A DNA stretch of 32,000 bases from Halogeometricum borinquense DSM 11551 (GCF_000172995.2 NC_014729.1:240001-272000); one strand, 5' to 3'; counted from the stretch's first letter, positions 1,225-27,153 are shown. Made by a program: numbers and translations. The notes: generated from the sequence alone by a model not told the origin.

Positions 1225-1339
1225 TACCTATGAATATCCGGCAGACAGGCGTCAGACGGGTACAAAACGGATACCAGCGTTTCTGTCTCCCGACTCCGAA
1301 GAACGCAACCGTGATACTGTTTGACGACGACACGCGAAT

Positions 1340-1951: not shown

Positions 1952-2215
1952 GGTTTGTCGGCGCCCGACGAGTTCCGACCGCGTAACTCCCAGTTATCGG
2001 TCGTAGCGCTCGGAGCGGGCGAGGACAGCGAGTGCAACCCCCATCACGAGCATCGGTGGGACGGTCCCGTCAGTGACTGCTGCTGTCACACCTCCAACGA
2101 CCAGCCCTACTCCGGTGATCCCCGCGTTTTCACCCGATTTCGAGTGGGTGCCGGAAGTGACATACGTGACCCCGTTTTCGCTATCCTATACTTTCTTGCA
2201 GTGGTTTTTGCGGTC

Positions 2216-3022
2216 TCACGCGCGCCGTAACTGGCCGCCGTCGTCGGCTAACACGTCGCGGTGAATGGCGTACTCGATGATGTCGTCCACTTGGCTCGGG
2301 TCGAGGTCGTACGCGCCGCTTGCCAAATCCGCGAATTCGGTTCTTTCGACGGGGAATTCGCGGTTGTTCAGCAGGCGCATTACTTTCCGGAAGTTCGGCG
2401 GTTCCGACTCGGCGGGTTCCGCGTCGGTTTCCTTCGTCTCGGTCGGCGTCTCGTCGGTCTCGTTCGTGGTTTCGTCATCTGCGCGTGACTCTCTTTGCTC
2501 TCCCTCGTCGGCCGCACCGGCGGTGTCATCCCCGCTCGCTGACGCGTCAGAAGTTTCGACAGCGGCGCTCGGGGTGTCCTCAGTGGCATCGTCGGCTTCC
2601 TCATCGACCGGTTGTTTGTCACTGACTGGTTCGGCTTCGGCGGCCGAGTGGTCGGTCGTTGTCGAGCTGTCTTCCCCGACCAACGTCTCAGCGGGAGTCT
2701 GTGCTGTGGCTGAGGTGTCGGGTGACTGGCCGCTCCCTTCGACTCCCCCATGTTCGCCAGACTCGGTAGATGCTGGGGTTGGGTTGGGCGATGAACTTCG
2801 TTCTCGCTGGGTGTCTTTCTCCACCGACTGTCCGGATTCCCCGGCGCGCAGTCGGTTGAGAAGCGGATCGATGACGGTTTCGAGTGTCTCCAAACAGCCG
2901 TCGCAGAGGACGACCCGACGCTGTTCGGACTCCGTTGGAGACAGTTCTGCGGGCAGGACTTCGTAGATTCCGGCGGCATCGCCGCCACAAAAGTCGCAAC
3001 TGCGCAGTTGACGCATGGACAT
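2216..3022 (-). CDS. Hypothetical protein: N-terminal Zn-ribbon (CDFCG...CDGC), about 170-aa extremely acidic low-complexity linker, conserved-looking C-terminal globular domain
   Basis: Start chosen at MSMRQLRSCDFCGG (ATG at 3022). The linker is rich in D/E/T/S/A (ETDETPTETKETDAEPAESEPP). The C-terminus is NFRKVMRLLNNREFPVERTEFADLASGAYDLDPSQVDDIIEYAIHRDVL. Confidence 0.7.
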   Translation of the reverse strand: MSMRQLRSCDFCGGDAAGIYEVLPAELSPTESEQRRVVLCDGCLETLETVIDPLLNRLRAGESGQSVEKDTQRERSSSPNPTPASTESGEHGGVEGSGQSPDTSATAQTPAETLVGEDSSTTTDHSAAEAEPVSDKQPVDEEADDATEDTPSAAVETSDASASGDDTAGAADEGEQRESRADDETTNETDETPTETKETDAEPAESEPPNFRKVMRLLNNREFPVERTEFADLASGAYDLDPSQVDDIIEYAIHRDVLADDGGQLRRA

Positions 3023-3135
3023 ACGCGATTCGTCTGCCCCACACGAGTTAAACCCTCTTTCCACGCTCGCCGCTTTCGGCCGTGCGGGACGAACATGTGT
3101 CTTAATGCGGGTCGGCGTGTATCCCCCGAAAAGCG

Positions 3136-3639
3136 ATGTTCGACGAGATTATGCGAAAGTTCGAGGGAAGCCCCAGCCAACAGGAGGTTATCCGCCTTCT
3201 CCTCGAACGAGGGTTCTCGGTCAACGACGAGGGTCGCGTCGTCTCCGGCGGCATCGAGATTCCGAACACGGGTATCGCCCGCGAAATCGACGTTGACCGC
3301 CGCGTTGTCGATTCGACGACGAGTGCGATTCTCGAAGACGAGGAACTGCGGCGTATCTTCCAGAACATCTCGTCGATTCCGAGTCTGATGGATCTCGCTC
3401 CGGTCCTTGACCTTTCGGTACTCACCGTCGAAGTTGCCGACGCCGACGCACCGGGAATCGTCGCCGAGATAACCGGCCGCCTTGCAGAGCGCGATATCTC
3501 TATCCGGCAGACCATCAGTGAGGACCCCGAGTTCACCGACGACCCGAAACTCTACCTCGTCACCGACCAACCCGTTCCGGGCGACCTGCTGAACGAACTT
3601 TCGAGCATCTCGTTCGTCCGGCAGATCAGCATCGCCTGA
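3136..3639 (+). CDS. ACT-domain protein, predicted regulator of amino-acid metabolism (COG2150-like)
   Basis: N-terminal HTH-like segment (SPSQQEVIRLLLERGFSV, NTGIAREIDVDRRVV) followed by an ACT-like segment (LTVEVADADAPGIVAEITGRLAERDISIRQ). Confidence 0.7.
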   Translation: MFDEIMRKFEGSPSQQEVIRLLLERGFSVNDEGRVVSGGIEIPNTGIAREIDVDRRVVDSTTSAILEDEELRRIFQNISSIPSLMDLAPVLDLSVLTVEVADADAPGIVAEITGRLAERDISIRQTISEDPEFTDDPKLYLVTDQPVPGDLLNELSSISFVRQISIA

Positions 3640-3721
3640 ACCGAGGTCGCCGTCTCGTGCCGGGGAGTGCTGTCTCGCCGCCGACCGAATCCTTTTGACC
3701 GAACCCGAACCAACACCGTCT

Positions 3722-4342
3722 ATGACCGACGCCTACCGCACCGTCGCCGGTCCCGCCGAGGCCAGTTTCGAGGTTCGCGGGTCGGAGTTCATCGGCTACG
3801 TTGACCGCGCAAACACAGTCGAAAAAGCGGAGGCGTTCATCGACCGAATCGAGGAGCGACATCCGGATGCGACGCACAACGTGCCCGCCTATCGGGTTCC
3901 GGCGGGCGGAGACTCGGGAGGAGCGAACACGATGCTCCGCGAGTACTCCTCTGACGACGGTGAACCGTCCGGGTCCTCCGGCAAACCAGCCCTGAACGTC
4001 CTCGTCCAGCAAGAGATTCGAAACGTCGTCGCCGTCGTCACGCGCTACTACGGCGGCACGAACCTCGGCGTCGGCGGACTCGCTCGCGCGTACTCCCGCG
4101 GCGTGAAGGAGGCCGTCGAGGCCGCCGGGACCGTCGAGGAGGTCCCACACGAGACGTTCTCTGTCACCGTCGCCTACGACGACTCCGGTTCCGTCCGAGG
4201 TCTGTTGGAGAGCGCCGACGTGTCGTTCGACGCCGCCTACGAGGCGGACGTGTCGTTCGACGTGCGCGTCCCAGTCGAGGAAGGTGCGGAACTCCGCGAC
4301 CGACTCAGAAGCGCGACCAGCGGCCGGGCGGATATCGAGTAG
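3722..4342 (+). CDS. YigZ/IMPACT family protein (UPF0029)
   Basis: GSEFIGYV...HNVPAYRV...SSDDGEPSGSSGKPALNVL...VVAVVTRYYGGTNLGVGGLARAY matches the IMPACT N-terminal domain signature. ATG at 3722 is preferred over the TTG at 3695. Confidence 0.8.
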   Translation: MTDAYRTVAGPAEASFEVRGSEFIGYVDRANTVEKAEAFIDRIEERHPDATHNVPAYRVPAGGDSGGANTMLREYSSDDGEPSGSSGKPALNVLVQQEIRNVVAVVTRYYGGTNLGVGGLARAYSRGVKEAVEAAGTVEEVPHETFSVTVAYDDSGSVRGLLESADVSFDAAYEADVSFDVRVPVEEGAELRDRLRSATSGRADIE

Positions 4343-4422
4343 CGGCACGATTCCCCGGTGAATTACCCACCTGAACCGCCGGGAGCGACACACTCAGGGT
4401 GTGAACTTTCGTGCCCAAAACC

Positions 4423-5559
4423 ATGACAGACCGACACGAAGCAGTCGTGGTCGGCGGCGGCATCGTCGGGTCGTCCGTCGCCTACCACCTCGCGCGTGAG
4501 GGCGTCGAAACGCTTCTCGTGGACCGCACCGACGACGGCCGCGCCACTGACGCCGGTGCTGGAATCCTCTCGCCCGGTACGACGAGCAGGGACAACGAGC
4601 CGTGGGTCAAGTTCGCCGTCGAAGCAGTGGCCTACTACGACGAGTTGGTTCCTGTTCTCGAACGCGAACAGGACGGCCCGCACGGCTACGCAAAGCGCGG
4701 CGTTTTGAGCGTCGCTATGGACGACGAGGAGGCCAACGTGTGCGACGAAACGCTCGAACGCGTCCGCAAGCGACAGGAGCGCTTCGGCACGCCCGAACCG
4801 GGAACCGTTGAAGAACTCGACGCTGACGAAGCGCAGGCGAAGTTCCCGCCGCTCGCAGAGACGGAGCGCGCGTTCTTCTCAGCGGACGCCGCTCGCGTCA
4901 ATGGACGGACGTTCGAGGGAGCGCTCCGCCGCGCCGGGCGGACTCACGGTCTGTCCGAACGCGAGGCGAGCGTCGAGACGCTTCTCGTCGATGATGGCGG
5001 CGTGGAGGGCGTCGAACTCGCGGGTGGCGACCAAATCGAGGCTGAGAGCGTCATCATCGCGGGCGGTGCGTGGTCGCAGTCGTTCGGATCGCAACTGGGT
5101 GTCGAGATACCCGTCGAACCGCAACGCGGGCAAATCGTCCACCTCGACGTGGACGCCGACACCGACGGCTGGCCCATCGTTAGCCCATTCCGTGGCCACT
5201 ACATGGTTCCGTGGGACGACGGCCGCGTCGCCGCTGGTGCGACCCGCGAAACTGGTTCGGGATACGCTCCACACACGACCATCGAGGGCCTGACCGAGGT
5301 GTTCGAGCAGGTGCTTCGCGTTGCGCCCGGACTCGCAGACGCAACGCTCCGAACCGCGCGTGTCGGCCTCCGCCCATTGAGTCCCGACGGCCTGCCAGTT
5401 TTGGGTTCGGTTCCGGACGTATCGGATGTCTACCTCTGTACGGGGCACGGACCGACGGGACTGCAGTTGGGACCGTACAGCGGGAAGTTGGTCGCGGATG
5501 CCGTCCGCGGTGAAATACCCGAAACTGATCTCGAACCGTTCGCCGTCTCCCGGTTCTAA
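4423..5559 (+). CDS. FAD-dependent oxidoreductase (DAO family; glycine/D-amino-acid oxidase-like)
   Basis: N-terminal dinucleotide fold VVVGGGIVGSSVAYHLAREG. The length and the C-terminal GHGPTGLQLGPYSGKLVA are typical of the DAO family. Substrate unknown. Confidence 0.8.
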   Translation: MTDRHEAVVVGGGIVGSSVAYHLAREGVETLLVDRTDDGRATDAGAGILSPGTTSRDNEPWVKFAVEAVAYYDELVPVLEREQDGPHGYAKRGVLSVAMDDEEANVCDETLERVRKRQERFGTPEPGTVEELDADEAQAKFPPLAETERAFFSADAARVNGRTFEGALRRAGRTHGLSEREASVETLLVDDGGVEGVELAGGDQIEAESVIIAGGAWSQSFGSQLGVEIPVEPQRGQIVHLDVDADTDGWPIVSPFRGHYMVPWDDGRVAAGATRETGSGYAPHTTIEGLTEVFEQVLRVAPGLADATLRTARVGLRPLSPDGLPVLGSVPDVSDVYLCTGHGPTGLQLGPYSGKLVADAVRGEIPETDLEPFAVSRF

Positions 5560-5627
5560 GCCACCGACTCGCGGCCGTCCCCGCCGGTGGGCGTAACACT
5601 TTCACGAGACGCTTCGAAGGCGGCGAC

Positions 5628-7787
5628 ATGTCTCAGATTTCTGCGACTGACTACCACGATATTGTGCAGGTCGAGGATCCGCAGGTGTCACCCGACGGAA
5701 CGCGCGTCGCGTTCGTCCGAAAAGAACCGAAAGATGACGAATCGTACGAACAGACGATCTACGTCGTCCCGGCCGCGGGTGACTCCGATCCACGACGACT
5801 CACCATCGCAGAAGGTGTCGATTCCCAGCCCCGATGGAGTCCTTCGGGCGACCGACTCGCGTTCGTCTCGACACGCGGTGCGGACGACGACCGCCCGCAA
5901 CTGTGGGTCCTTCCAATGGACGGCGGCGAGGCCGAACAGGTGACCGACGTACCGGGCGGCGTTTCGGGCATCGAGTGGAGTCCGGATGGGACTCGAATCG
6001 CCTTCCAGCAGGCGACCACCGAGACCGAACGCGAGGACGGAATCGATCTCGGAATCGGCGACGAGGAGTACGAACGCGAGGCATCCGATCCCCGTGTCAT
6101 CGACCGTCTGATTTATCGCCAACAGACACAGTACCGCGATGGCACGGTCGCGCACGTCTATCTCGCCCACGTGGACCGAGACGACGACCGGGTCGAACGG
6201 GTCACCGACGGTGAACTCGACCACGTCGCTCCTGCGTGGCGCGACGACGACACACTCTATTTCGGCGTGAAGTTCCCGCAGGGTGAGGTCGAACCCGACG
6301 ACAGTCCCGTCATCGATATCCAGTCTGTGGAGTTGCCCTCTGGCGACGTGACGGACGTGACGCAGACGACCTGTTGGGGCCTCGTGATGGACGTTGCCTC
6401 CGACGGCCGCGTCGCCTACGTCCGCACGCCCGAGGAACGAATGTCGATGCGGAGTTCCGACATCGAAGTGTACGACCCCGAGACGGAACGAGCGGTCGTC
6501 CCCACCGAAACGCTCGACCGGACTGTAGACCTTGCGGCCGGCCTCTCGTGGGGACCGGACGAGGAAGACGTGTACTTCCTCACGCCCGATGGAGGCCATT
6601 ACGTCACCCGGCGGGTTTCGGCCGATGTCGAAGAAAGGAGCTCTGCAGACCGGGAAACACAGTCTGACGACGCCGAACCAGAACTCCTCATCAGCGACGG
6701 GCATACTACTGGATTCTCTATCGGCGCTCGCTCCGACTCGCCCGTCCTCGCTGTCGCCAAAAGCGAATGGGACCACCCGGGCGACGTGTTCGTCTTCGAA
6801 TCGGACGAAGAACGTCGTCTGACTGAGGTGAACGCCGATTACCTCACGGAGGTTGACGTACAGGAACCCGAGGAGATCTGGTTCGAGTCCGACGGCGTCG
6901 AGGTGCAGGGATGGGTGCTGACGCCGCCCGGATGCAGCGAAGATGAGACGTACCCGCTCGCAGTCGAGATTCACGGCGGCCCGCACGCGATGTGGTCCAC
7001 CTCGGGGACGATGTGGCACGAGTACCAACTCTTGGCCGCGCGCGGCTACGTCGTTTTCTGGTCGAATCCACGCGGATCGACCGGCTACGGAGAGGAGTTC
7101 GCCACTGCCATCGAATCCGACTGGGGTGACGTGACGATGACCGACGTGATGAACGGCGTCGAGCGCGTCTGCGACCGTGACTACGTGGACGCCGAGAACG
7201 CCTTCGTCACCGGCGGGTCGTTCGGCGGGTACATGACCGGGTGGATCGTCGGCCACACCGACTTTTTCGCGGGTGCTGTCGGTCAACGGGGCGTCTACGA
7301 CCTCTCGTCGTTCTACGGTTCGACAGACGCCTTCAAACTCATCGAGGGCGACTTCGACACGACGCCGTGGGACGACCCCGAGTTCCTCTGGGAGAAGTCA
7401 CCCGTCGCCTACGCCGACAACGTGACGACGCCGACGCTCGTGATGCACGCGGACAACGACTTTCGCGTCCCCGTCAACAACGGTGAGATGTTCTACCTGT
7501 TCATGAAGAAGAACGGCGTCGAGACGCGTTTCGTTCGCTATCCGCGCGAGGGCCACGAACTCTCGCGGTCCGGCGAACCCGGCCACGTCGTAGACCGCCT
7601 CGAACGCACCGTCCGTTGGTTTGACGGCTACTCGGACTACCACGACGTGCCCAAAGCGCTCGAACGCGGTGACGACGGCCTGTCCGCGAATGAGAGTGAC
7701 AGCGAGTCAGACGACGAGGCCGACGCCAGCGACGACGCCGAAACTGGCAACACCGACGGCGACACTTCTGCGGACACCGACGAGTAA
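5628..7787 (+). CDS. S9 family serine peptidase (prolyl oligopeptidase/acylaminoacyl-peptidase type) with N-terminal beta-propeller and acidic C-terminal tail
   Basis: Repeated PxxSPDGxxxAF propeller motifs. Catalytic GGSFGGYM (Ser), HADNDFRVP (Asp) and YPREGHEL (His). Confidence 0.88.
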   Translation: MSQISATDYHDIVQVEDPQVSPDGTRVAFVRKEPKDDESYEQTIYVVPAAGDSDPRRLTIAEGVDSQPRWSPSGDRLAFVSTRGADDDRPQLWVLPMDGGEAEQVTDVPGGVSGIEWSPDGTRIAFQQATTETEREDGIDLGIGDEEYEREASDPRVIDRLIYRQQTQYRDGTVAHVYLAHVDRDDDRVERVTDGELDHVAPAWRDDDTLYFGVKFPQGEVEPDDSPVIDIQSVELPSGDVTDVTQTTCWGLVMDVASDGRVAYVRTPEERMSMRSSDIEVYDPETERAVVPTETLDRTVDLAAGLSWGPDEEDVYFLTPDGGHYVTRRVSADVEERSSADRETQSDDAEPELLISDGHTTGFSIGARSDSPVLAVAKSEWDHPGDVFVFESDEERRLTEVNADYLTEVDVQEPEEIWFESDGVEVQGWVLTPPGCSEDETYPLAVEIHGGPHAMWSTSGTMWHEYQLLAARGYVVFWSNPRGSTGYGEEFATAIESDWGDVTMTDVMNGVERVCDRDYVDAENAFVTGGSFGGYMTGWIVGHTDFFAGAVGQRGVYDLSSFYGSTDAFKLIEGDFDTTPWDDPEFLWEKSPVAYADNVTTPTLVMHADNDFRVPVNNGEMFYLFMKKNGVETRFVRYPREGHELSRSGEPGHVVDRLERTVRWFDGYSDYHDVPKALERGDDGLSANESDSESDDEADASDDAETGNTDGDTSADTDE

Positions 7788-7897
7788 ATTCTTCCCGGCG
7801 TTCCGCTTCTCAGGGGCAATGCGTGGATGATTGTGGTTGTTCTTCATACACGTCAACGTCCGGTGATTTAACCCGGCGACGACGCCATAACGACACC

Positions 7898-8167
7898 GTG
7901 TCACTCCAACTGATCGCGCCGGCAGTCTTGGGACTGGCTTGTCTGGTCGTGGGGTACGTACTCGTGTTTCGCGTTGAGACGGCGCTTGCTGTCCAAGAGA
8001 AGTATGCGGAGGCAGCTAGCTCGACACCGCCCTCAGAGAATCCTGAGTACTACGAAGAGACACACGAGCATCGGCGGTGGACGTTCTATTTGGGTGGTAT
8101 GGTTTTGCTTGCGGTCGGTACCCTGCTGATCGCAGCGGCGGTCTACGGAACGTTCTCCGTCGAATAG
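7898..8167 (+). CDS. Small hypothetical membrane protein (2 TM)
   Basis: GTG at 7898 gives VSLQLIAPAVLGLACLVVGYVLVF...GGMVLLAVGTLLIAAAVYG. A TTTAA element at 7867-7871 lies about 29 nt upstream, consistent with a leaderless start. The longer ORF from 7823 has an implausible Cys/Ser/Arg-rich N-terminus. Confidence 0.45.
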   Translation: MSLQLIAPAVLGLACLVVGYVLVFRVETALAVQEKYAEAASSTPPSENPEYYEETHEHRRWTFYLGGMVLLAVGTLLIAAAVYGTFSVE

Positions 8168-9193: not shown

Positions 9194-10291
9194 TCAAAAC
9201 TCGCCGCGGAACTCACGGTCGGTGAGTCGTCGCCTATCGACTGGGTGCGCTCCGAGCGTCGTCGATTTGGTCATCTCTTGTCGATACGCGTTGTACACGT
9301 GAACCGTTTCGCCGTCCTGCGTTATCTCGTCGGTACCGCGAACGCTGTCGAAGACGCGCCAGTCGGTCTCTTTCGTATGATTGAACCAACAGACCATCTT
9401 CACGTCTTCTGTCCGCACGTAGTCGTATAGCTCGGTGATCCACGCCCCCTTCCGTTCGGGGTCGTTCCCTGAGTCCACTTCGGTCGAACAGCCGACTTCC
9501 GTGATGGCAATGGGTGCGTCGGTGACGCTCCGTATCTGTTTGAGCGCCTTCCCGTATATCTTCGGCGGCGCGAACCAGCTGACCCAGTTCCACCAGTTGT
9601 ACCCGTTTACCCCCGCCCAATCGACGACATCGTCGCCGGGGTAGTAGTCGGGTATCGGGATGCCGCCGCGCCCACCGGCGTTCGGTCCCCAGATCCACTG
9701 GATGTTCGAGGAGTCGAGTCCGTTCGACATCACGCGCCTGTGGACGTGACGGAACATCGCCACGTAGTCGTCGGGCGTCGAATCGCCAGCGGGCGCACCC
9801 CACGGCACCCAGTCACCGTTCATCTCCGGTGCGAATTCGAGGAATAAACGCCGGTCTGGTCGCCCCCACCCACGTCGCATCCACTTCGTGAGCGCGTCCC
9901 GCCACGCGTCCACGCTGTCGTCGTGTTTTCCGTCGGCGATATCTCTCGAAATCGTCGTTGACGTCTCCGTCTTGGTGCCGAACGTCGGTTCTAACACCAA
10001 CATCGGGACGTGTCCGTGCTGCCAGATCGATTCGAGTGACGAGACCGTTTGCGCTATCTCCTCCTCAGATTGCCCAAGCGTCGCATACTGGACGACGACT
10101 GCGTGCGGCTTGCCGGTCCACTGCTCGAACCGGTCGAGAGACCGAACCGGCGACCGTTGTATCGAAACCCCGGCGAGGAAGTCGCCGGTGCGCGTCTCTC
10201 CGGTACCCGCTACGCTACGTACGATACCAGCCCCGCCAACAGTCGTCCCCGCCGATGCGGCGACCAACCCCAGAAACCGCCGTCTCTCCAT
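9194..10291 (-). CDS. Tat-secreted glycoside hydrolase, GH26-like (clan GH-A, beta-mannanase type)
   Basis: Start at MERRRFLGLVAASAGTTVGGAG (twin-arginine signal). FLEFAPEMNGDWVPWG (acid/base Glu context), IQWIWGPNAGG, YYPGDDVVDWAGVNGYNWW and ITEVGCS (nucleophile Glu context) resemble GH26 signatures. Confidence 0.7.
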   Translation of the reverse strand: MERRRFLGLVAASAGTTVGGAGIVRSVAGTGETRTGDFLAGVSIQRSPVRSLDRFEQWTGKPHAVVVQYATLGQSEEEIAQTVSSLESIWQHGHVPMLVLEPTFGTKTETSTTISRDIADGKHDDSVDAWRDALTKWMRRGWGRPDRRLFLEFAPEMNGDWVPWGAPAGDSTPDDYVAMFRHVHRRVMSNGLDSSNIQWIWGPNAGGRGGIPIPDYYPGDDVVDWAGVNGYNWWNWVSWFAPPKIYGKALKQIRSVTDAPIAITEVGCSTEVDSGNDPERKGAWITELYDYVRTEDVKMVCWFNHTKETDWRVFDSVRGTDEITQDGETVHVYNAYRQEMTKSTTLGAHPVDRRRLTDREFRGEF

Positions 10292-10430
10292 ACTGCTTCG
10301 TCGGCATCCCGACTCCATTAGTAAGATACGACTATTTGGCTGGGTGCTAGGCTAAAGCTCGCATTTCGCACCCGACCATTCCACGCATGCTCGACATAAC
10401 AAAACAGTCGAAAACGCTCTCTTGGGGTGC

Positions 10431-10739
10431 ATGATGGGTGGAGAACAGATATCTACTGGACTGGACGCGAGCGCAGACACGGCTTGTCCCGACTGCGATG
10501 GTGGGCGCGTCCAGCGGGTTGGGATGTTCGAACACACGACGTGTGGATTCGTCGATGTCGCGGCAGGATTCGACGCTGCGGACCGCTATCTCAGTTGTCC
10601 AAAGTGCGACGAAACGCTGACGACGGCGGATGACGGTCTCACGTGCGTCGCGTTCGTCCTTCACTGTCCCGAGTGTGACAGACGCTTCGACGACGTAGCG
10701 ATCCCGTCGCTTGCGCCGCAGTCGGCGGAGGCAGACTGA
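10431..10739 (+). CDS. Small Zn-ribbon protein with three CPxC motifs (CPDC, CPKC, CPEC)
   Basis: ATG at 10431. Its stop lies 5 nt before the GT2 start at 10745. It is acidic and has no TM segment. It may be TackOD1-like, but that rests on memory only and is unverified. Confidence 0.6.
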   Translation: MMGGEQISTGLDASADTACPDCDGGRVQRVGMFEHTTCGFVDVAAGFDAADRYLSCPKCDETLTTADDGLTCVAFVLHCPECDRRFDDVAIPSLAPQSAEAD

Positions 10740-10744
10740 GGGCG

Positions 10745-12448
10745 ATGAACGAACCGACAGACGACGCTTTCGGGTGGTCAACACGCGCGCCGGTACAACT
10801 ATTGCTACTCTTCTTTGTCGTCCTCGCGGGAGTGGTGTTGTTTCCTCCCGTGATGATTTTCGGCCCGCTGGGGTTCGCATTCGTCTTTGCGGCCCTCGTA
10901 TTCGGCGCGGTACGCTGGCAGCGGTGGTCTGAACGACTCTTCGGAACCGGTCTTCCGATTCCCGGGTGGTTCGTGGCGGCGATACTGTCGTCGTTAGGTC
11001 TGTTTGCTCTCCTCGCCTACACCGAACGATACACCACCGAAGCGACGCCGTTCGTCTTTCTCGTGGCGTTTTGCCTTCCGTGGGTGGTCTCACTCACGGT
11101 CGGTGGTCGACTTCGTCGGTTGGCTAACACACGGGTACGACTCTCCATCTGGCTTGCTATTGTCCTCTCAGCACTCGTTCTCACCGGCGGATTCGTGTTC
11201 GGGTGGTCGGTTCCAACACCGTACGAGATGGCCGTCTTCGCTGGATTCGTCGTTATCGCCTTCATCGTCGTTGTGGTATTTCCGCTCACTATCGTGCAAA
11301 TGCGCGGCCGAGAGGAGTCGGACCACACACTTGATGACGACGATGCACCGCTCGTAAGTGTCCTCGTACCTGCGTACAACGAATCGAACTACGTCGGCGA
11401 CTGTCTCGATTCGATACTCGCTTCGGACTATCCAACAGACCGGCTGGAAGTCATCGTCATCGACGACGGAAGCACCGACGGAACGTATGCGGAGGCATCG
11501 GCCTACCGAAACGACCGCGTGTCAGTCTTTCACCGCTCGAACGGTGGAAAGCATGCGGCGCTCAACCTCGGGCTCTCTTGTAGCCGCGGTGATGTTGTCG
11601 TCGCAGTTGATGCCGACAGCATCTTGGCACCGTCCGCTCTCCGAACTGCTGTCGAACAGCTTCAGTCTGATCCACGCTTGGGTGCCGTTGCGGGCACCGT
11701 CGTCGTCAATAACGCCGACGGAATCGTTGGCAGTGTGCAGGCGTTAGAGTACGTTCTCGGCATCAACACGCTCCGTCGGGCGTTTTCCTACCTCGGTACG
11801 GTGATGGTAATTCCCGGTTGCCTCGGCGTGTTCCGCCGTGAGGCGCTCTCGGAGGTCGGCGGCTACGATCCCGACACCGTTACCGAGGACTTCGATTTAA
11901 CCGTCAGACTCCTCAAGGCGGGGTGGCGAGTCGAACTCAGTGAAGCTCTCGTCTACACTGAGGCTCCGTTCTCGCTGACTGACCTTTTGAACCAACGCCT
12001 TCGGTGGACGCGCGGGAACATCCAGACGCTGCTCAAACACCGCGACGTATTTTCGGAACCGGCGTACGGATTCCTTCATCGCTTCGCGTTTCCGCTTTCC
12101 GCGCTGTCGATTCTGTTTGTACCGTTTGCGAGTATTGTTGTTACGACGATGATCTTCGTCGCAATACTCAATGGCGCGTTCCTCGGGGTGGCGCTCGTCG
12201 CAGCATACTTCCTGTTTGTTCTCCTCTTCGTCGCTGCGATGGCGCTCGATCTATCTGACGGCGACTGGCGATTGCTCGCGTACGCCCCGCTCCACCTTGT
12301 CGGCTACCGGCAATTCCTCGATGTCATCGTGATTCGGACGGCGTTAATGCTGCTTCGCGGAACGAATAAACGGTGGGAGTCAGTCACACGCGAACGCCAA
12401 CAGTCGTCGGAGGCGCTAGCAGGATCACAGCGTCCCAGTGACGACTAA
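10745..12448 (+). CDS. Membrane-embedded processive family-2 glycosyltransferase (polysaccharide synthase type; BcsA/PgaC/NodC/CslA-like architecture)
   Basis: About 6 N-terminal TM helices, then VLVPAYNES, VIVIDDGSTDGT, VVAVDADS, VTEDFDL and QRLRW (11993-12007), then about 4 C-terminal TM helices. Confidence 0.85.
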   Translation: MNEPTDDAFGWSTRAPVQLLLLFFVVLAGVVLFPPVMIFGPLGFAFVFAALVFGAVRWQRWSERLFGTGLPIPGWFVAAILSSLGLFALLAYTERYTTEATPFVFLVAFCLPWVVSLTVGGRLRRLANTRVRLSIWLAIVLSALVLTGGFVFGWSVPTPYEMAVFAGFVVIAFIVVVVFPLTIVQMRGREESDHTLDDDDAPLVSVLVPAYNESNYVGDCLDSILASDYPTDRLEVIVIDDGSTDGTYAEASAYRNDRVSVFHRSNGGKHAALNLGLSCSRGDVVVAVDADSILAPSALRTAVEQLQSDPRLGAVAGTVVVNNADGIVGSVQALEYVLGINTLRRAFSYLGTVMVIPGCLGVFRREALSEVGGYDPDTVTEDFDLTVRLLKAGWRVELSEALVYTEAPFSLTDLLNQRLRWTRGNIQTLLKHRDVFSEPAYGFLHRFAFPLSALSILFVPFASIVVTTMIFVAILNGAFLGVALVAAYFLFVLLFVAAMALDLSDGDWRLLAYAPLHLVGYRQFLDVIVIRTALMLLRGTNKRWESVTRERQQSSEALAGSQRPSDD

Positions 12449-20473: not shown

Positions 20474-21556
20474 TCAGCTTTCCAGTGTCGCCGTGACCGT
20501 ACGCAGGTTCTCCAGTCTGTCTTCGACGGACGGGTGAGTTTGCGTGGCGATAGTCGCTTTCTCGTCGTCTTCAGCATCCGTGCTGAACCCGTGCGGCAGG
20601 AAGCAGAGGCCGCTGAGCGTAGACGCCGTCGAACGCAAGTCGCGCCGTGTTCGCTCCTCGTCCGCCAGCGTCCGAATCGCACTCGCCATCGCCGCGGGGT
20701 CACCCGTCGCTCGCGCGCCCGCCGTATCGGCGACGAGTTCGCGCCGCCGCGACAATCGACGAGTGAGGACGACGGCGGGGGCCGCCAACAGGCCAAGGAG
20801 GACGCCGCCGAGGAGGAGTGTGAAGCCGACGACGAGGAGGAACTCGCCGAGTGATGACCCGCCGAACGCCGTCCCCGAAAGTCGCGGCGTCGCCATCACG
20901 TAGAGGACGAACAGACCGATTGCGCCGATGAGGTAGTGTGCGCCGCTCATCGAGGGGATGACAGAGTCCGACGTCGAGTACTCGCCGTTGGCGAGGGCCG
21001 GCAGGACGGACGCGAGCGTCATCACCGTCGCATCGCGGTTTTTCACGTGCGCGAGTTCGTGGGCCAACACGGCGTCGAGTTCGTCGTCCGAGAGGTCGTC
21101 GATGAGTCCCCGACTGATGACGACGGTGGACGCGCGCGGACCACCGACGGCCAGCGAGTTCGGCACGTCGGTATCGACGACGGCCAACTCGGGCGGCCGA
21201 AGGTCGAACTGCGCGGCGAGCCGAGTGATTCGAGCGTGTAAGTTCGGATGTGTTGATTCGCTCACCGTCTTCGCGCCGACGGCGGCGAGAACACCGCGCC
21301 GCGCGTACCGAAGATGGGCGAGGAGGAACACGCCGGTGACGGCGACGATTGCGACACCGCCGACGAGGACGCTCGGCGTGCCGGACGGGAGGTATGGTTC
21401 GACCCACGGCGCGACGAGGTAGCCGAAGGCGGCGACGGCGACGACATCGATAGTAACGACGAGCGCCAGCGCCGCGGCCATCTCACGGACGAGTGACTTG
21501 TCCGCTGTCGGACCTGTGACAGCCGAAGTGTGACCGTCTGACGTGGAGGGCGACAT
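20474..21556 (-). CDS. M48 family zinc metalloprotease (HtpX-like), integral membrane
   Basis: HELAHVKNRD (HExxH), the downstream RRRELVADTAGA (third-ligand Glu context) and 4 or more TM helices. Confidence 0.85.
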   Translation of the reverse strand: MSPSTSDGHTSAVTGPTADKSLVREMAAALALVVTIDVVAVAAFGYLVAPWVEPYLPSGTPSVLVGGVAIVAVTGVFLLAHLRYARRGVLAAVGAKTVSESTHPNLHARITRLAAQFDLRPPELAVVDTDVPNSLAVGGPRASTVVISRGLIDDLSDDELDAVLAHELAHVKNRDATVMTLASVLPALANGEYSTSDSVIPSMSGAHYLIGAIGLFVLYVMATPRLSGTAFGGSSLGEFLLVVGFTLLLGGVLLGLLAAPAVVLTRRLSRRRELVADTAGARATGDPAAMASAIRTLADEERTRRDLRSTASTLSGLCFLPHGFSTDAEDDEKATIATQTHPSVEDRLENLRTVTATLES

Positions 21557-21582
21557 TTCGTGTCTAAGGTAGGAGAGGAGGA

Positions 21583-21615
21583 ATAAATGTTTCCCGGAGA
21601 GGACAAGGATTTTAC
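21583..21615. promoter_or_regulatory. Back-to-back divergent promoters: AATAAA (21583-21588, read as TTTATT on the - strand) for the M48 gene and TTTTAC (21610-21615) for the 21639 operon
   Basis: Each A/T hexamer lies about 25-30 nt from its start codon (21556 and the GTG at 21639) within an 82-bp intergenic region, consistent with leaderless transcripts. Confidence 0.45.
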
Positions 21616-21638
21616 GGGTTTGCCTCTCACCCTATAAC

Positions 21639-22709
21639 GTGTCACGCGACCGCACACGTGCCGCCCTCGCCCTCCTCTGTGTCGTGGTGGTGCTGTTCGG
21701 CGGGTCGCTGTTTCCGACTGCCGGTTTCGGGTCGTACCCGGCCGGTATCGGCGGTGGGAACGGCGTCCCCGGTGCCCCCGGCGATTCGCCGGGTTCCGGC
21801 ATCGACGACCGAGCCACCCCGACACCGAGCCCGACCGAGGCAGCACAGACGGCGGACGATGGACAGACCGAGACTGCAACCGGGACACCAACCCCGACGC
21901 CAACTCCGACAGAGACGCCAGTCTCCGACGGGCCAACGGACGACGGCATCTCGATGGACGGTGCGTTCGCTGGTATCATGCTCATCATCGGCGTGTGCGC
22001 GGCGGGACTGCTCGTGTTCTCGCTCGCGCCGGGTATCGATGAGCAGACGACTTTTGCCGGGCTTCCAATCGGCCGATTCCAGACGAACCTCCGGGCGTTC
22101 TTCGCCGCCGTTCCGCGACGGACGACATCGTTCCTAGTTGGTCTCTCGGCGTCCGTTCCGGGTGTACTCGACAGAGTGTTCTCTGTCACTGTCGCCGCGG
22201 CGGAGTCGTTCGGTGTCATCGCCAAGGGCCTCGTCCGCGGTAGCGGGCGAACCCTCGCGGTCCTCGGCGGAAGTTTGGGAACCGTCGTCACTGTACTTCC
22301 TCGTGCGTTTGGCGGCGGTCTATCAGCCCTGTTCGGCGGACTTCTCCGCGCCGGTTCGGGGGGTCTCACCGGTCGTCGCGGGAACGAACGGGAGCCGAAC
22401 GATGGTTCCCCGACGCCGACTGCCGACGTTGAGGAGGAGACTGACCCGACTCCGCAGAGCGTCGAGGAAGCGTGGGCGATGATGGCCGAACGAGTCCCCA
22501 TCGGAAACCGAAAAGCGGCCACGCCGGGCGAATACGCCCGCGCCGCTGTCGCCGCTGGCTTCCCCGAGTCGGCCGTCCAGCGACTGACTCGTGCGTTCGA
22601 GCGAGTGCGGTACGGCGGGAAATCCGGACGCGACGAACTCCCGAGTGTCCGGGATGCCCTCTCCCGGATTCGCTCGTTCCTCGACAGTAACGGCGGTGAG
22701 AACGCATGA
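21639..22709 (+). CDS. Membrane protein with Thr/Pro-rich linker and C-terminal DUF4129-like domain
   Basis: GTG start. N-terminal TM, a GTPTPTPTPTETP linker (21885-21920), a second TM, and a C-terminus TPGEYARAAVAAGFPESAVQRLTRAFERVRYGG that resembles the DUF4129 signature. Confidence 0.75.
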   Translation: MSRDRTRAALALLCVVVVLFGGSLFPTAGFGSYPAGIGGGNGVPGAPGDSPGSGIDDRATPTPSPTEAAQTADDGQTETATGTPTPTPTPTETPVSDGPTDDGISMDGAFAGIMLIIGVCAAGLLVFSLAPGIDEQTTFAGLPIGRFQTNLRAFFAAVPRRTTSFLVGLSASVPGVLDRVFSVTVAAAESFGVIAKGLVRGSGRTLAVLGGSLGTVVTVLPRAFGGGLSALFGGLLRAGSGGLTGRRGNEREPNDGSPTPTADVEEETDPTPQSVEEAWAMMAERVPIGNRKAATPGEYARAAVAAGFPESAVQRLTRAFERVRYGGKSGRDELPSVRDALSRIRSFLDSNGGENA

Positions 22710-23560
22710 TTCTGTCATGGCTGCGACGCCATTTACAGATCGTATTCGCGGCTTGTGCGCTTATCGGAGCCGTCGTCGTCGTTCTCCCCGAGTGGCTGCT
22801 CCCGTCGTTTGTCGTTACGCTCGCTTCCTCATCGCTTGCGAGTTCCTCGCTCGTCCTCGTTGCTGCCGGACTCGTAGGCCTGTACGGGATTCGTGTCCTC
22901 GTGTCCCCTGACGAGGAGGAAACAAGCCAGACAACGGTCCAGTACCCTCAGACACCGCCCGAAACCGCCGTCCACGAGGTTCGTCGCGTTGTCGGTGAGG
23001 ACGTTAACGGCGCGGCCAGTACCGCTGTTCCCGATGAGAAGTGGAAGCAGCGACGGCATCGGCGTCGGGCGTACGGAACGCTCCGGACTGCGGCCGTTGA
23101 CGCAATCGCCGAGACGACTGGCTGCCCCCGAGAGACGGCGACCGAACTCGTCGCTGAAGGGCGGTGGACGGACAAACCGCGCGCTCGGGCGTATCTCGCA
23201 CAAGATACGTCGATTCATCCTCCGCTTCGAACACGCGTCCGCGATTGGGCGGCCGGTGAGCGGACTGAACGCGCCGTCCAGGACACCGTTTCCGCGATCC
23301 TCTCTATCCGCGACGGCGACGCCGACGTGGCGCGTGCGGAACTTGCGGCGATTGAATCAACAGCTAGCCAGTCTGTTGCTCACGCTGACGCACCGGCGGC
23401 AACGACAGACGAATTTGCGGACGCAGAACCGCCGTACACACCGTCCGAAGACGCAGACACTGAGAAAATCGCTATGGAACGAAACGCTGCATTGGCCGAA
23501 ACTGATGGCGGCGCACCCGCCAAGTCCACAACCGACACTGACGAAGGTGATCGCCGATGA
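22706..23560 (+). CDS. Hypothetical 2-TM membrane protein with acidic cytoplasmic domain
   Basis: ATGA overlap with the upstream gene at 22706-22709. TM helices IVFAACALIGAVVVVL and SSLVLVAAGLVGLYGIRVLV. Confidence 0.7.
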   Translation: MILSWLRRHLQIVFAACALIGAVVVVLPEWLLPSFVVTLASSSLASSSLVLVAAGLVGLYGIRVLVSPDEEETSQTTVQYPQTPPETAVHEVRRVVGEDVNGAASTAVPDEKWKQRRHRRRAYGTLRTAAVDAIAETTGCPRETATELVAEGRWTDKPRARAYLAQDTSIHPPLRTRVRDWAAGERTERAVQDTVSAILSIRDGDADVARAELAAIESTASQSVAHADAPAATTDEFADAEPPYTPSEDADTEKIAMERNAALAETDGGAPAKSTTDTDEGDRR

Positions 23561-24885
23561 GTGGTCGGGGACGAGTCACGACAAGATCGACACAGAGTGA
23601 TTTGAGTCTCGCATCCACGCTGTTGTCCTCGGGACCGGCACGGACTGACATTGGCCTCGTGTTCGCACTGTTTGCCGGTGCAGCGGGCATCGTCGTCTCG
23701 GAGCCAGCAATGTTCGTCTCCGCTATCGTTGGGTTCGTCTACGTTGGCTATCGAAACGCCAACCGCGAACCTGACCCGACGCTGACGCTCGACCGGACGC
23801 TGAGCACGCAGTCACCCGCGCCGGGAGCAACTGTCGAGGTGACGCTTACGGTCACGAACGAGACCGAGGAACCCGTTCCAGACCTTCGTCTCGTGGACGG
23901 CGTTCCCGAACGACTGGCAGTTGTCGATGGCTCACCGCGTCTCGGAACGAGCCTCGGACCCGGTGAGTCGGAGTCGCTGACGTACGCTATCCGCGCTCGC
24001 CGCGGGTCGCACTCGTTCGATGAGTGCGTTGTCGCCGTCCGCAACCTGAGCGGTAGCGCAGAGACGCGTGATGCGGTCGAAATCGACACGAAACTGGATT
24101 GTGAGGGGAGCGTCGATGACGTTCCGCTGACCGGACAGACGATAACCGCGAGCGGCCGTGTTCCGACGGATTCTGGCGGCGAGGGCGTGGAGTTCTACGC
24201 CACTCGACAACACCATCGGACGGACCCGATGCGTCGCGTAGACTGGAAGCGGTACGCGAAGACGGGCGAACTCACTACTGTCGAGTTCCGCCGCGAACGC
24301 GCGGCAACCGTTATCTGTCTCGTGGACGTCCGCGTCGAGGCGCACGTCGCCCGGCGCGAGGGCGAACCCGACGCCGTGTGGCTCTCGAAGTACGCCGCCG
24401 AACGGGCGATGGAGTCACTCCTCTCTACCGGCAACCGGGCCGGTGTGGCACTGTACGGTGCGTTCCCCGGTCAGCGCTATCTCGAACCCAAGACGGGCCG
24501 CGACCAAGTTCTCCGCGCCCGGTCGCTGTTCGAGAAAGCAGAGATACCGGACGCGTCCCGAACCGACCGCAATCAGTCACGCCGGAACGTGAATCTCGAA
24601 ACGCTTCTGAAACGGATCCCCGACGACGCACAGATCGCGTTCTTCTCGCCGTTCCTCGACGAGGATGTGGTTACCGATGCGCGCCGTCTCGCGGCTCACG
24701 GCCACTCCGTGACGGCGTATGTCCCGGATTTAGCCGGGAAAACGCCCGGCGGCGAAATATCGAAATTCGAGCGTGACCGTCGCCTCCGCAAACTCCACGG
24801 TGACGACGTGCGCGTGGTGCTTTGGTCGCCGGACGAACCGCTTCGTGCGGCGACTGACCGCGCGAAAGCGAGGTGGTCGGCATGA
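23557..24885 (+). CDS. DUF58 domain protein (vWA-like fold, the usual MoxR partner) with N-terminal TM pair and Ig/CARDB-like segment
   Basis: ATGA overlap at 23557-23560. APGATVEVTLTVTNETEEPVPDLRLVDGVP is Ig-like. RRVDWKRYAKTGELTTVEFRRERAATVICLVD is the DUF58 hallmark. Confidence 0.8.
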   Translation: MSGRGRVTTRSTQSDLSLASTLLSSGPARTDIGLVFALFAGAAGIVVSEPAMFVSAIVGFVYVGYRNANREPDPTLTLDRTLSTQSPAPGATVEVTLTVTNETEEPVPDLRLVDGVPERLAVVDGSPRLGTSLGPGESESLTYAIRARRGSHSFDECVVAVRNLSGSAETRDAVEIDTKLDCEGSVDDVPLTGQTITASGRVPTDSGGEGVEFYATRQHHRTDPMRRVDWKRYAKTGELTTVEFRRERAATVICLVDVRVEAHVARREGEPDAVWLSKYAAERAMESLLSTGNRAGVALYGAFPGQRYLEPKTGRDQVLRARSLFEKAEIPDASRTDRNQSRRNVNLETLLKRIPDDAQIAFFSPFLDEDVVTDARRLAAHGHSVTAYVPDLAGKTPGGEISKFERDRRLRKLHGDDVRVVLWSPDEPLRAATDRAKARWSA

Positions 24886-26402
24886 GTCAGTTCGGACCTG
24901 AGTGGCACGACGCAGTGGACACTGTTGGCGCGCCGGATTCCTCGGCAGCGCCGTTCTCCGCGTCGCTGGCGTTCGGAATCGCCGTTGTCGCCACTTTCGC
25001 TCTCGGCGTTGCTGTCGGGTCGCCGCTCGGTGCTGTTGTCACCGCTGTCGGTGCGAGCGTCGTCGGCTGGAGCGCAGGCGAGCTCACGAGCAACGAAAAC
25101 AGCCGCCGCGCCGTCGGGAGTATCAGTACCCTTGTTGGTACGTCGCTTCTTGCGGTCTCCATCGGCCTGTTCGGTCCCGAACCGTTTGTTGGTAGTGTCG
25201 CGGCGTTCGCACTCGTCGCTGTAGCATTCGACCGTTTCGCCGGACTGACCGAAGACACAGTCGGTGTCGTCTCCCGGGCGATTATCCACTCCGGTGTGGC
25301 TATCGCCGGCTTTGCCGCGCTGGCCCTGCTTGTACACTTCCACGTCGCCAGCACTGCGGCGTTGACCACGTACGGGCTGTTCTCTCTGCTCTCGAGAATG
25401 AGTCCGCTCGTTTCGGTCCTCGTTATCGAACTGGAAGTGCTGTTCATCGTTCTCACAATCGAACCCGCTATCGAGCGTCTGGAGCGCCTGACCCCGGAAA
25501 CTAGGGTCCTTGACCGTATCACCGCGCTTGATGTTGTTGCTGTCGATATCGCTGCCGTTCCGCGTGGCGTCTGGATCCTCGTCGCTGGAACCGGCTATCT
25601 CACGGCAACTTCGTGGGCGCGAGTGATGTTCGAGCAGTTCCTCGATTCGCTCTCGATGCTCGGTACGGCCGTCGCGTTCCTCCTTCAGTCTGGTTTCATC
25701 ACTGGCCCGCTCGGTTTCGTTGTGGCGCTTCTCTTGGCAGTGTTCGCCGTCAATATGGCTCGTCTGGTCGTCATGTTTTGGCTCGGATCTGACCCGTCGG
25801 AGACGCTTTCGCTGGCCGCGGGTGGGTTCGTCGTCGGATCGGTGGCTTTCGTCGGGGGTCTCATCCCGTCTCTCTCGTCGATTGTCTCAACCACGTTCTC
25901 CGAGGGGCCGCTGTTGCAGATCATGGCTCGCGTGTACGGCACCGGCGCGACACTTCTCGCCGTCGTGGTGGGATTGCTCTTCGTCGTCCTCCTTATCCTC
26001 GCCGTGATCGTCTACCTCGTTGAACACGAGTTTGTTCCACCTGCCGCGGGCGGGTTCGCCCTCGGCAGTGGACTGCTGTTCATCGCCGGACTTCTGGTCG
26101 CCGCCACCGATGCGGCGGCTATCGTCACCGTCGCCACTGTCGGTGCGGCTCTCCTCGTTTGGGATCTCGGCGAGAACGCTGTTGACGTGGGGCAGACGCT
26201 CGGAACCGACGCGGAGACGCGCCGTGGTGAAGCCGTCCACGCCGCCGGGAGTATCGCCGTCGTGACTGGTGCCGTCGTTCTCGCGGCTATCTCGCTGTAC
26301 GTCCTCGGTCCGCTGTCGGTTCCGGCGGGCCGCGCGCGCTTTGCGTTGCTGTTACTCGTCGTGGCGCTCTGCGGTTTCGCCGTGGCGACGTACAACGAGT
26401 GA
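24882..26402 (+). CDS. Polytopic integral membrane protein (about 12 or more TM), unknown function
   Basis: ATG at 24882 overlaps the upstream TGA (ATGA at 24882-24885). The translation is almost entirely hydrophobic helices. Confidence 0.75.
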   Translation: MSQFGPEWHDAVDTVGAPDSSAAPFSASLAFGIAVVATFALGVAVGSPLGAVVTAVGASVVGWSAGELTSNENSRRAVGSISTLVGTSLLAVSIGLFGPEPFVGSVAAFALVAVAFDRFAGLTEDTVGVVSRAIIHSGVAIAGFAALALLVHFHVASTAALTTYGLFSLLSRMSPLVSVLVIELEVLFIVLTIEPAIERLERLTPETRVLDRITALDVVAVDIAAVPRGVWILVAGTGYLTATSWARVMFEQFLDSLSMLGTAVAFLLQSGFITGPLGFVVALLLAVFAVNMARLVVMFWLGSDPSETLSLAAGGFVVGSVAFVGGLIPSLSSIVSTTFSEGPLLQIMARVYGTGATLLAVVVGLLFVVLLILAVIVYLVEHEFVPPAAGGFALGSGLLFIAGLLVAATDAAAIVTVATVGAALLVWDLGENAVDVGQTLGTDAETRRGEAVHAAGSIAVVTGAVVLAAISLYVLGPLSVPAGRARFALLLLVVALCGFAVATYNE

Positions 26403-26480: not shown

Positions 26481-26720
26481 ATGTCAGAGCCACTTCGTGC
26501 GAAGTCCGGCGAGTTGACGGCCGACGAGATACTCGACATACTTCGTGAGGGCCGTCGTGTCATCGTTGAGGCGGAGATGCTCGGTGGGGTACACGAGGTG
26601 TCACTCCGCCACGACGGGACGACGTTCTACTGTGATACGCCGACGACGCTCCACAAACACGCCGAAGAGGAGGAGATGCGAAACTGTATCGTGAAGATGG
26701 GGTACGCGAAGGACGAGTAA
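26481..26720 (+). CDS. Small hypothetical cytoplasmic protein (79 aa)
   Basis: Clean ATG ORF with acidic composition: ELTADEILDILREGRRVIVEAEMLGGVHEVSLRHDGTTFYCDTP. Confidence 0.55.
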   Translation: MSEPLRAKSGELTADEILDILREGRRVIVEAEMLGGVHEVSLRHDGTTFYCDTPTTLHKHAEEEEMRNCIVKMGYAKDE

Positions 26721-26781: not shown

Positions 26782-27153
26782 ATGAGCGACACGCCAGACA
26801 TGGGGGACCTCATCGAGACCGACGACCCCAGTTTCCAGCACGTCCTCGCGTGTGTCTTCGGGATTCAAGAACACGAGAGCAGAACGTACCTCACTCTCCT
26901 TGATAACCCCGGCAGTACCGTCGCCGAACTGGCTGACATCCTCGACAGAGATCGGAGCAACGTCAACCGTTCGCTGACGACGCTGATGGAGAAGAATCTC
27001 GCTGATCGGGAGCGACGACTGTTGGATCCCGGCGGCTACGTCTACCAGTACACCGGCACGCCGCTCCCGGAGGCGAAAGAGATGCTCCACAACGCGCTGG
27101 ATAAGTGGGCAGAACAAGTCCACGAGAGTATCGAAGAGTACGGCACCGAGTAA
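26782..27153 (+). CDS. Winged helix-turn-helix transcriptional regulator (TrmB/ArsR-like small HTH protein)
   Basis: SRTYLTLLDNPGSTVAELADILDRDRSNVNRSLTTLMEKNLADRE is a typical wHTH recognition segment. Confidence 0.7.
   Translation: MSDTPDMGDLIETDDPSFQHVLACVFGIQEHESRTYLTLLDNPGSTVAELADILDRDRSNVNRSLTTLMEKNLADRERRLLDPGGYVYQYTGTPLPEAKEMLHNALDKWAEQVHESIEEYGTE

Follow-up and report, generated by a model that had tools for sequence, protein, structure and literature searches.

A four-gene DUF58 membrane operon of Halobacteria exists as two paralogous types, one adjoined by an HtpX-like M48 protease gene and the other usually by a MoxR gene

A stretch of 32,000 nucleotides (nt) from Halogeometricum borinquense DSM 11551 (GCF_000172995.2 NC_014729.1:240001-272000), hereafter the window, carries four consecutive plus strand genes for membrane proteins that lie back-to-back with a gene for an HtpX-like M48 metalloprotease. 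These five genes are the subject of this analysis and are listed below with positions counted from the first letter of the window, lengths in amino acids (aa) and E-values of the Pfam assignments, all of which are matches above the gathering score (TM, transmembrane).

20474-21556, minus strand: M48 gene, HtpX-like zinc metalloprotease of 360 aa with an HELAH motif and 4 predicted TM segments (Pfam Peptidase_M48, 2.4e-26)
21557-21638, no strand: divergent intergenic region between the M48 gene and gene 1, 82 bp, with back-to-back TATA-like elements (seen in the sequence)
21639-22709, plus strand: gene 1, DUF4129 protein with 2 TM segments, 356 aa, GTG start (Pfam DUF4129, 1.4e-11)
22706-23560, plus strand: gene 2, DUF7269 protein, 284 aa (Pfam DUF7269, 5.7e-26)
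23557-24885, plus strand: gene 3, DUF58 protein, 442 aa (Pfam DUF58, 1.5e-10)
24882-26402, plus strand: gene 4, polytopic DUF7519 protein, 506 aa counted from ATG (Pfam DUF7519, 6.3e-13)

Protein 1 matches DUF4129 (PF13559) at residues 277-340 with 44.7 bits (cut-off 24.8), protein 2 matches DUF7269 (PF23933) with 92 bits (cut-off 29.1), protein 3 matches DUF58 (PF01882) at residues 216-387 with 41.1 bits (cut-off 23.4), and the match of protein 4 to DUF7519 (PF24363; 49.3 bits, cut-off 27) spans only its C-terminal part, i.e., residues 354-495. More than 200 homologues of protein 3 carry a DUF58 annotation. The product of 20474-21556 scores 93.1 bits against Peptidase_M48 (cut-off 20.3), and its top NCBIfam HtpX model, PRK02391, gives 160 bits where the cut-off is 341; as it falls below every HtpX equivalog cut-off in NCBIfam, we consider it a divergent HtpX-like paralogue. 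An initial annotation of the window, generated by a model from the sequence alone, had already described four plus strand genes joined by three ATGA overlaps, TM helices in all four products (about 12 in protein 4), DUF4129 and DUF58 domains, an immunoglobulin (Ig)-like segment in protein 3 and an 82-bp divergent spacing to an HtpX-like M48 gene with back-to-back TATA-like elements. All of this holds: the open reading frames (ORFs) and overlaps are in place, hydropathy agrees with the helices, profile searches place both domains above their gathering scores, and the Ig-like segment is seen both as a weak DUF11/CLIPPER match in Pfam (residues 76-131) and in the structural comparisons described below. 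It was also right that the window lacks a MoxR AAA+ ATPase and a transglutaminase core, as no AAA_3/MoxR was found in the 32 kb by Pfam on all other large ORFs or by a MoxR hidden Markov model (HMM), built from verified MoxR sequences, on all six-frame ORFs, and Pfam detected no transglutaminase core in protein 1 or the other large ORFs of the window. Proteins 2 and 4, which it described as a protein with 2 TM segments and a polytopic one, belong to existing Pfam families, DUF7269 and DUF7519; full-text literature searches returned no paper mentioning either family.

The operon was compared across the class using a DUF58 orthologue profile against Halobacteria genomes. The best 80 of 381 matches were taken as loci, five more (L004-L006, L087, and L088) were added by exact-protein look-up, two (L089 and L090) served as gene-called examples only, and HMMs of the five window proteins were run on the six-frame ORFs of all loci. 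With the window's own copies excluded from the counts, the comparison set comprises 83 loci, sampled from, e.g., Halogranum, Haloarcula, Halomicrobium, Halorussus, Haladaptatus, Natronoglomus, and Halomarina. The order DUF4129 - DUF7269 - DUF58 - DUF7519 recurs in essentially every one of them, so the conservation that the initial annotation proposed to look for is real. The loci fall into two types. Type A, to which the window belongs (48 loci), has a DUF7519 protein of ca. 470-570 aa and a divergently adjoining M48 gene in 46/48 loci, i.e., in 46/46 that could be evaluated (L016 is cut off upstream, and L069 is the exception). Type B (35 loci) has a DUF7519 protein of only ca. 150-230 aa, no M48 gene in any locus (0/35) and a MoxR gene within 10 kb downstream in 26/35, convergent in 25; the 23 MoxR candidates submitted to Pfam were, without exception, AAA_3 plus AAA_lid_2 proteins. 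With the MoxR HMM, none of the type A loci but L069 (1/48) showed a MoxR gene. Gene calls with precomputed Pfam labels, available for eight loci, reproduce the same two layouts. In a neighbor-joining tree of DUF58 proteins both types are monophyletic (48/48 and 35/35), and mean identity is 0.50 within type A, 0.52 within type B and 0.41 between them. L069 (positions 1129-8164 of an 8-kb metagenomic contig) branches between the two types and combines a 495-aa DUF7519 protein with a convergent MoxR gene 26 nt downstream and no M48 gene.

Both types can reside in one genome, and H. borinquense itself is a case in point. Its type B DUF58 protein, C499_15565, is 83% identical to the Halogeometricum limi protein of that type and is encoded within a DUF4129 - DUF7269 - DUF58 - DUF7519 (177 aa) locus followed 22 nt on by a convergent MoxR gene, a layout that is identical in Haloferax volcanii. 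Further genomes with both types include those of Halorussus amylolyticus (L019/L038), Haloarchaeobius (L021/L041), Halorussus ruber (L024/L070), and Haladaptatus AB618. The type B loci of Haloarchaeobius are further distinguished by two tandem DUF4129 paralogues of gene 1 (L041:6256-9252, L043:6922-9261, L046:7258-9282). The initial annotation had viewed the window operon as one lacking its usual MoxR; the absence is genuine and conserved but, rather than an orphan from which the ATPase gene has been lost, the operon is one of two ancient paralogues.

The weight of the M48 link becomes apparent when it is set against the rest of the neighborhood. Each of the other window neighbors scored (CstA, DUF8052, cupin, DUF5828, TrmB-like regulator, ThrC, SerA, ArsA, and DUF8001) has homologues flanking the operon in no more than 2-5 of the 46 type A loci, compared with 46/46 for M48, and all-against-all clustering of flanking ORFs revealed no universal gene besides M48 in type A and MoxR in type B. 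These figures favor the protease as a functional partner over a chance neighbor, in line with the initial annotation. At least 95% of 47 M48 orthologues keep HExxH and the Glu that follows further downstream; as the catalytic residues are thus retained, these proteins are probably active enzymes. The M48 gene and the four genes form a five-gene unit that is conserved throughout the genera sampled, which range from relatives of Haloferax to Haloarcula and the natronoarchaea, and we regard the statements on gene linkage as nearly certain. What the linkage reflects is long-term retention through extensive rearrangement and not repeated independent acquisition.

Within the unit the four genes are translationally coupled. 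The ATGA start/stop overlaps that join them in the window (at 22706, 23557, and 24882) are no local accident, since 4-nt NTGA overlaps are kept across type A loci, namely in 43/46 at the junction of genes 2 and 3, in 46/47 at that of genes 3 and 4, and in 27/46 at that of genes 1 and 2, where a further 11 have a 1-nt overlap; the figures for type B are similar. At five loci the DUF7269 and DUF58 genes are fused in frame at the DNA level (one type A and four type B loci; L037, L050, L052, L072, and L084), and ten database proteins are such fusions (P0055, P0069, P0091, P0093, P0102, P0113, P0118, P0120, P0123, and P0124). The fusion proteins, ca. 630-670 aa long with four TM segments, retain both TM hairpins, which places the C-terminus of DUF7269 and the N-terminus of DUF58 on the same cytoplasmic side. 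The fusions fit a direct contact between the two proteins, which is probable.

The arrangement of the divergent promoters is likewise conserved. In the window, 82 bp separate the M48 ATG (21556) from the GTG of gene 1 (21639), close to the median estimate of 91 bp for type A loci, and TATA-like elements are located 23-30 nt 5' of both start codons. That of gene 1, ATTTTAC at 21609-21615, lies within AAGGATTTTAC (21605-21615), 23 nt 5' of the GTG, and in nearly all type A loci the AT content 5' of gene 1 peaks between -35 and -25, with the consensus gAAA-TATTTAc at -33 to -24. For M48 the element is ATTTAT (21583-21588, minus strand); it is placed ca. 27-30 nt 5' of the M48 ATG, and its conservation is less clear, partly since the assignment of the M48 start in type A loci is rough. 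Gene 1 begins with GTG in about 39/43 type A loci, an unusual start choice to be conserved. Haloarchaeal B recognition element (BRE)/TATA signals at such spacing fit a leaderless or near-leaderless transcript, and the operon mRNA is thus probably GUG-initiated and leaderless or nearly so, its promoter standing back-to-back with that of the protease gene. A scan for sigma-70 promoters and intrinsic terminators was uninformative, as it employs bacterial models that are not applicable to archaea.

Hydropathy gives protein 1 two TM segments (5-32 and 103-134) ahead of its C-terminal DUF4129 domain, proteins 2 and 3 an N-terminal TM hairpin each, and protein 4 about 12 or more TM segments. The loop between the two segments of protein 1 is ca. 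70 aa long, T/P/D-rich and nearly free of K/R, and the same composition is found across type A (median length 72 aa, 77% T/P/S/D/E/G, 1% K/R). By the positive-inside rule this loop is predicted to be outside and DUF4129 to be cytoplasmic. The same rule, together with the fusion architecture, predicts that the Ig-like and C-terminal parts of DUF58 as well as DUF7269 also face the cytoplasm, which is where MoxR and the HtpX active site are located too. Exposure to the outside is predicted only for the T/P-rich loop in protein 1 and for the protein 4 loops. Such a topology makes the envelope or S-layer role contemplated in the initial annotation less likely than one on the cytoplasmic side of the membrane.

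For protein 3, an AlphaFold2 (AF2) model from a 101-sequence alignment (mean predicted local distance difference test score, pLDDT, 84.8) shows residues 31-68 as a TM hairpin, 76-182 as an Ig-like beta-sandwich, and 211-440 as an alpha/beta domain. Ig-like domains dominate the Foldseek matches of the full-length model (e.g., TRAP-beta at 9e-09 and CLIPPER, 9ifr), and a sequence profile of protein 3 against the PDB retrieved no von Willebrand factor A (vWA) entry and no relative. We therefore speak of the C-terminal domain as vWA-like, a putative fold for which we rely on the Pfam family and the secondary-structure pattern. The DxSxS motif of the metal ion-dependent adhesion site (MIDAS) is absent; in the AF2 model D257-V-R259-V-E follows the strand 251-257 and precedes the helix 273-290, and this replacement of DxSxS by D-x-R suggests that the DUF58 protein has no canonical metal site. 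The VDxRxxA motif is kept in all 84 DUF58 sequences compared, of types A, B, and C.

The AF2 model of protein 2 is a helical bundle with a confident core (110-205, pLDDT >85) and an acidic tail, and had no significant match among PDB folds. A homologue search with protein 2 alone gave only 5 matches, the word index being unable to follow such a fast-evolving family. Gene 2 (22706-23560) has a third-position G+C of 0.62 compared with 0.71-0.80 in the adjoining genes, and the acidic, low-complexity C-terminal tail makes its product ca. 95 aa longer than the corresponding type B proteins (183-190 aa). An HMM of the short DUF7519 from type B matches type A proteins only at positions ca. 330-490. 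In protein 4, the C-terminal ca. 150 aa constitute the DUF7519 unit and the N-terminal ca. 330 aa a type A-specific extension. An origin of this extension as an internal repeat of the DUF7519 unit was rejected, the repeat test being negative. Among 1.84 billion representative proteins the DUF7519 family accounts for only 131 clusters, with long as well as short forms and no DUF7519-M48 fusion.

Taken together, we propose that the window operon is the protease-linked paralogue (type A) of a Halobacteria-wide module, with the M48 protease coupled through a common platform and the DUF7519 extension, a reading to which we give about even odds (a probability of roughly 0.5). The four proteins would assemble as a membrane-anchored complex with their soluble parts in the cytoplasm, DUF58 and DUF7269 serving as a platform for binding clients or partners. 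In type B this platform would pass clients to the remodeling ATPase MoxR, whereas in type A the ca. 330-aa membrane extension of DUF7519 would recruit or gate the HtpX-like protease, and the output may be an ATP-independent cleavage of membrane or membrane-proximal proteins, either for quality control or as processing during assembly. As the size of DUF7519 co-varies with the partner (long with M48, short with MoxR), the extension appears to be the best candidate for M48 docking. The DUF7269-DUF58 fusions and the conserved adjacency are indirect indications of a putative physical complex of the five proteins, a protease-adaptor mechanism seems the most likely option, and membrane-protein quality control, or remodeling/processing, is probably the function of the module and the most economical one. 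The bolder proposal, that the HtpX-like metalloprotease has replaced MoxR as the working partner of the vWA-like DUF58 membrane platform, making this the first protease-coupled DUF58/vWA adaptor system, is tentative, and we lean against it.

Several points weigh against the protease-coupled reading. The fold search with the full-length protein 3 model, in which the Ig-like domain dominated, gave no vWA match, and the equivalence of D257 with the MIDAS position is a supposition drawn from predicted topology. That M48 touches one or more of the four proteins is likewise a supposition, drawn from gene linkage, and, with types A and B each forming one clade, the links to M48 and MoxR may each go back to one ancestral event and have been retained since. 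L069 pairs a long DUF7519 protein with MoxR and lacks M48, so the long form is not strictly M48-dependent. Lastly, H. borinquense itself encodes a MoxR, by which type A might be served in trans. The initial annotation had left it at a complex either independent of MoxR or served in trans; with MoxR in the genome the latter may hold, and independence is putative. If service is in trans, the type A complex would still be a MoxR client or adaptor, using the type B-linked MoxR, and M48 would be co-regulated without being a mechanistic replacement. The type B locus of H. borinquense with its MoxR, the several genomes holding both types, the invariant motifs common to the DUF58 proteins of both types (including VDxRxxA), and the long gene 4 next to MoxR in L069 all speak for this explanation. 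However, M48 linkage is retained and MoxR is absent beside type A in all sampled families despite rearranged flanks, MoxR orthologues physically adjoin type B only, and an identity of ca. 41% between types, compared with ca. 50% within them, makes divergence in partner specificity plausible; we thus consider service in trans unlikely, though well worth keeping in mind.

The Thr/Pro-rich outside loop of protein 1 resembles an O-glycosylated S-layer linker, and a complex of MoxR, an Ig-vWA protein, and small proteins with 2-5 TM segments has been predicted in archaea (PMC5898192), which together invite the idea of a secretion or membrane-remodeling apparatus of the DUF4350/MoxR/Ig-vWA kind, in which M48 would be the processing peptidase for exported or surface proteins. 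This idea appears improbable, as no DUF4350, S-layer-like, or secreted component was found in the eight Pfam-labelled loci or among the conserved ORF clusters, and the Ig-vWA protein, DUF4129, and DUF7269 are cytoplasmic in the predicted topology. It is even harder to credit a signal-transducing protease system (BlaR1/M56-like or of the anti-sigma type), whose membrane proteins would sense an envelope cue and control the cleavage of a regulator by M48. The protease does match Pfam M56 (BlaR1) weakly (7.2e-07, below the cut-off), and a TrmB/MarR-type regulator gene (26782-27153) lies 380 bp downstream, but no more than 3/46 type A loci retain the latter, which was rejected as a module member, NCBIfam places the protease as HtpX-like, a sensor domain was not identified, and the use of MoxR by the paralogue fits poorly with the logic of a signaling protease. 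Back-to-back promoters also permit co-regulation without physical interaction, so that M48 and the operon might simply be independent stress genes on one bidirectional promoter region; that adjacency to M48 survives in 46/46 loci while all other neighbors changed, and that it co-varies with the N-terminal extension of protein 4, makes shared regulation alone very improbable.

The protease-coupled reading can be further judged against systems already known. Bacterial MoxR/DUF58/vWA operons include the Bat operon of Bacteroides and RL3499-RL3502 of Rhizobium, in which MoxR is an MRP-type AAA+ ATPase. BB0172-0176 of Borrelia is another such operon (PMC5700661). The haloarchaeal loci share with these operons the DUF58 core and membrane-anchored accessory proteins, and type B also adjoins an AAA_3 MoxR. 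The differences are that the window operon has M48 in place of MoxR, that BatA/BatB-type vWA and tetratricopeptide repeat (TPR) proteins are absent, that the MIDAS serines are replaced by D-x-R, and that the type B MoxR gene is convergent and not co-transcribed. The adjacent AAA_3 MoxR that defines MoxR-DUF58 systems is missing from the window, occurs in 1/48 type A loci, and is present in 26/35 type B loci. The mycobacterial Rv3689-Rv3695 block, which is co-regulated and encodes a membrane protein, DUF4350, MoxR, DUF58, and SpoIIM-like and RDD proteins (PMC8191103), is comparable in having MoxR and DUF58 among small membrane proteins; the haloarchaeal loci, however, lack DUF4350, SpoIIM, and RDD, and the mycobacterial cluster lacks DUF7269 and DUF7519, with no protease partner reported.

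Makarova et al. 2015 predicted arCOG01314 (DUF4350), MoxR, and an Ig-vWA protein to form an archaeal secretion or membrane-remodeling complex (PMC5898192). That complex and the present module have in common an Ig-like plus vWA protein, partners with 2-3 and 5 TM segments and, in type B only, a MoxR/GvpN-family ATPase. DUF4350 (not among the Pfam labels of the eight gene-called loci) and S-layer-like proteins are absent here, the predicted location of the Ig-vWA protein is the cytoplasm, with no secretion, and PMC5898192 does not mention an M48-linked form. The Bifidobacterium PFNA cluster has the order pkb2-fn3-MoxR-duf58-tgm, and in TgpA-type transglutaminases and this cluster DUF4129 and DUF58 co-occur with MoxR (PMC8430577). 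Unlike there, a transglutaminase core is found neither in the window nor in the eight gene-called loci. The initial annotation's premise that DUF4129 is normally a transglutaminase tail therefore fails for this module, where a stand-alone DUF4129 protein with 2 TM segments is the rule (8/8 Pfam-labelled loci). A role in the quality control of membrane proteins has been proposed for archaeal HtpX homologues (PMC9263693). The window protease resembles HtpX (M48B) in its four TM segments, in HExxH plus Glu, and in a Pfam M48 score above the cut-off, but not in reaching the NCBIfam equivalog scores given above. In the literature searched we found no report of an HtpX with a dedicated DUF58-type partner operon, and the full-text searches returned no description of a DUF58-M48 link or of this module; apparent mentions of DUF58 in PMC11023807 refer to DUF5821.

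Elsewhere in the window, the DUF8001 gene directly 3' of gene 4 (26481-26720, 79 aa) was discarded as a module member, being present in 2/46 type A loci, close relatives only. The stretch 9194-12448, of lower G+C (ca. 0.58), contains a GH26-like gene (minus strand) and a GT2 gene similar to cellulose or chitin synthases (plus strand) and is possibly a locus for exopolysaccharide. At 2216-3732, minus strand ORFs of 310 and 450 aa without a Pfam match lie opposite a plus strand ORF with an ACT domain and are probably non-coding shadow frames. Rfam detected no RNA family in the window, and PADLOC anti-phage models gave 0 matches to the five proteins at E-values up to 0.01.

To our knowledge, MoxR-DUF58/vWA modules are among the most widespread bacterial and archaeal operons still without a mechanism; as far as we know, archaea also lack FtsH, and their membrane proteolysis is poorly understood. 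The M48-linked type A points to an undescribed, protease-coupled variant of the MoxR-DUF58 membrane module. One genome holds two modules that share a four-protein core and have mutually exclusive partners, either MoxR or an HtpX-like protease accompanied by a lengthened polytopic subunit. This pair of paralogues is a natural experiment and offers a clean comparative handle on MoxR-DUF58 function: it predicts the docking subunit, namely the N-terminal extension of DUF7519, and suggests a core that serves as a platform for clients and whose outputs can be exchanged. DUF4129, DUF7269, DUF58, and DUF7519 gain a testable function in this way, as does one uncharacterized haloarchaeal HtpX paralogue. 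Should the protease indeed stand in MoxR's place, this would define a dedicated archaeal machine for membrane proteostasis.

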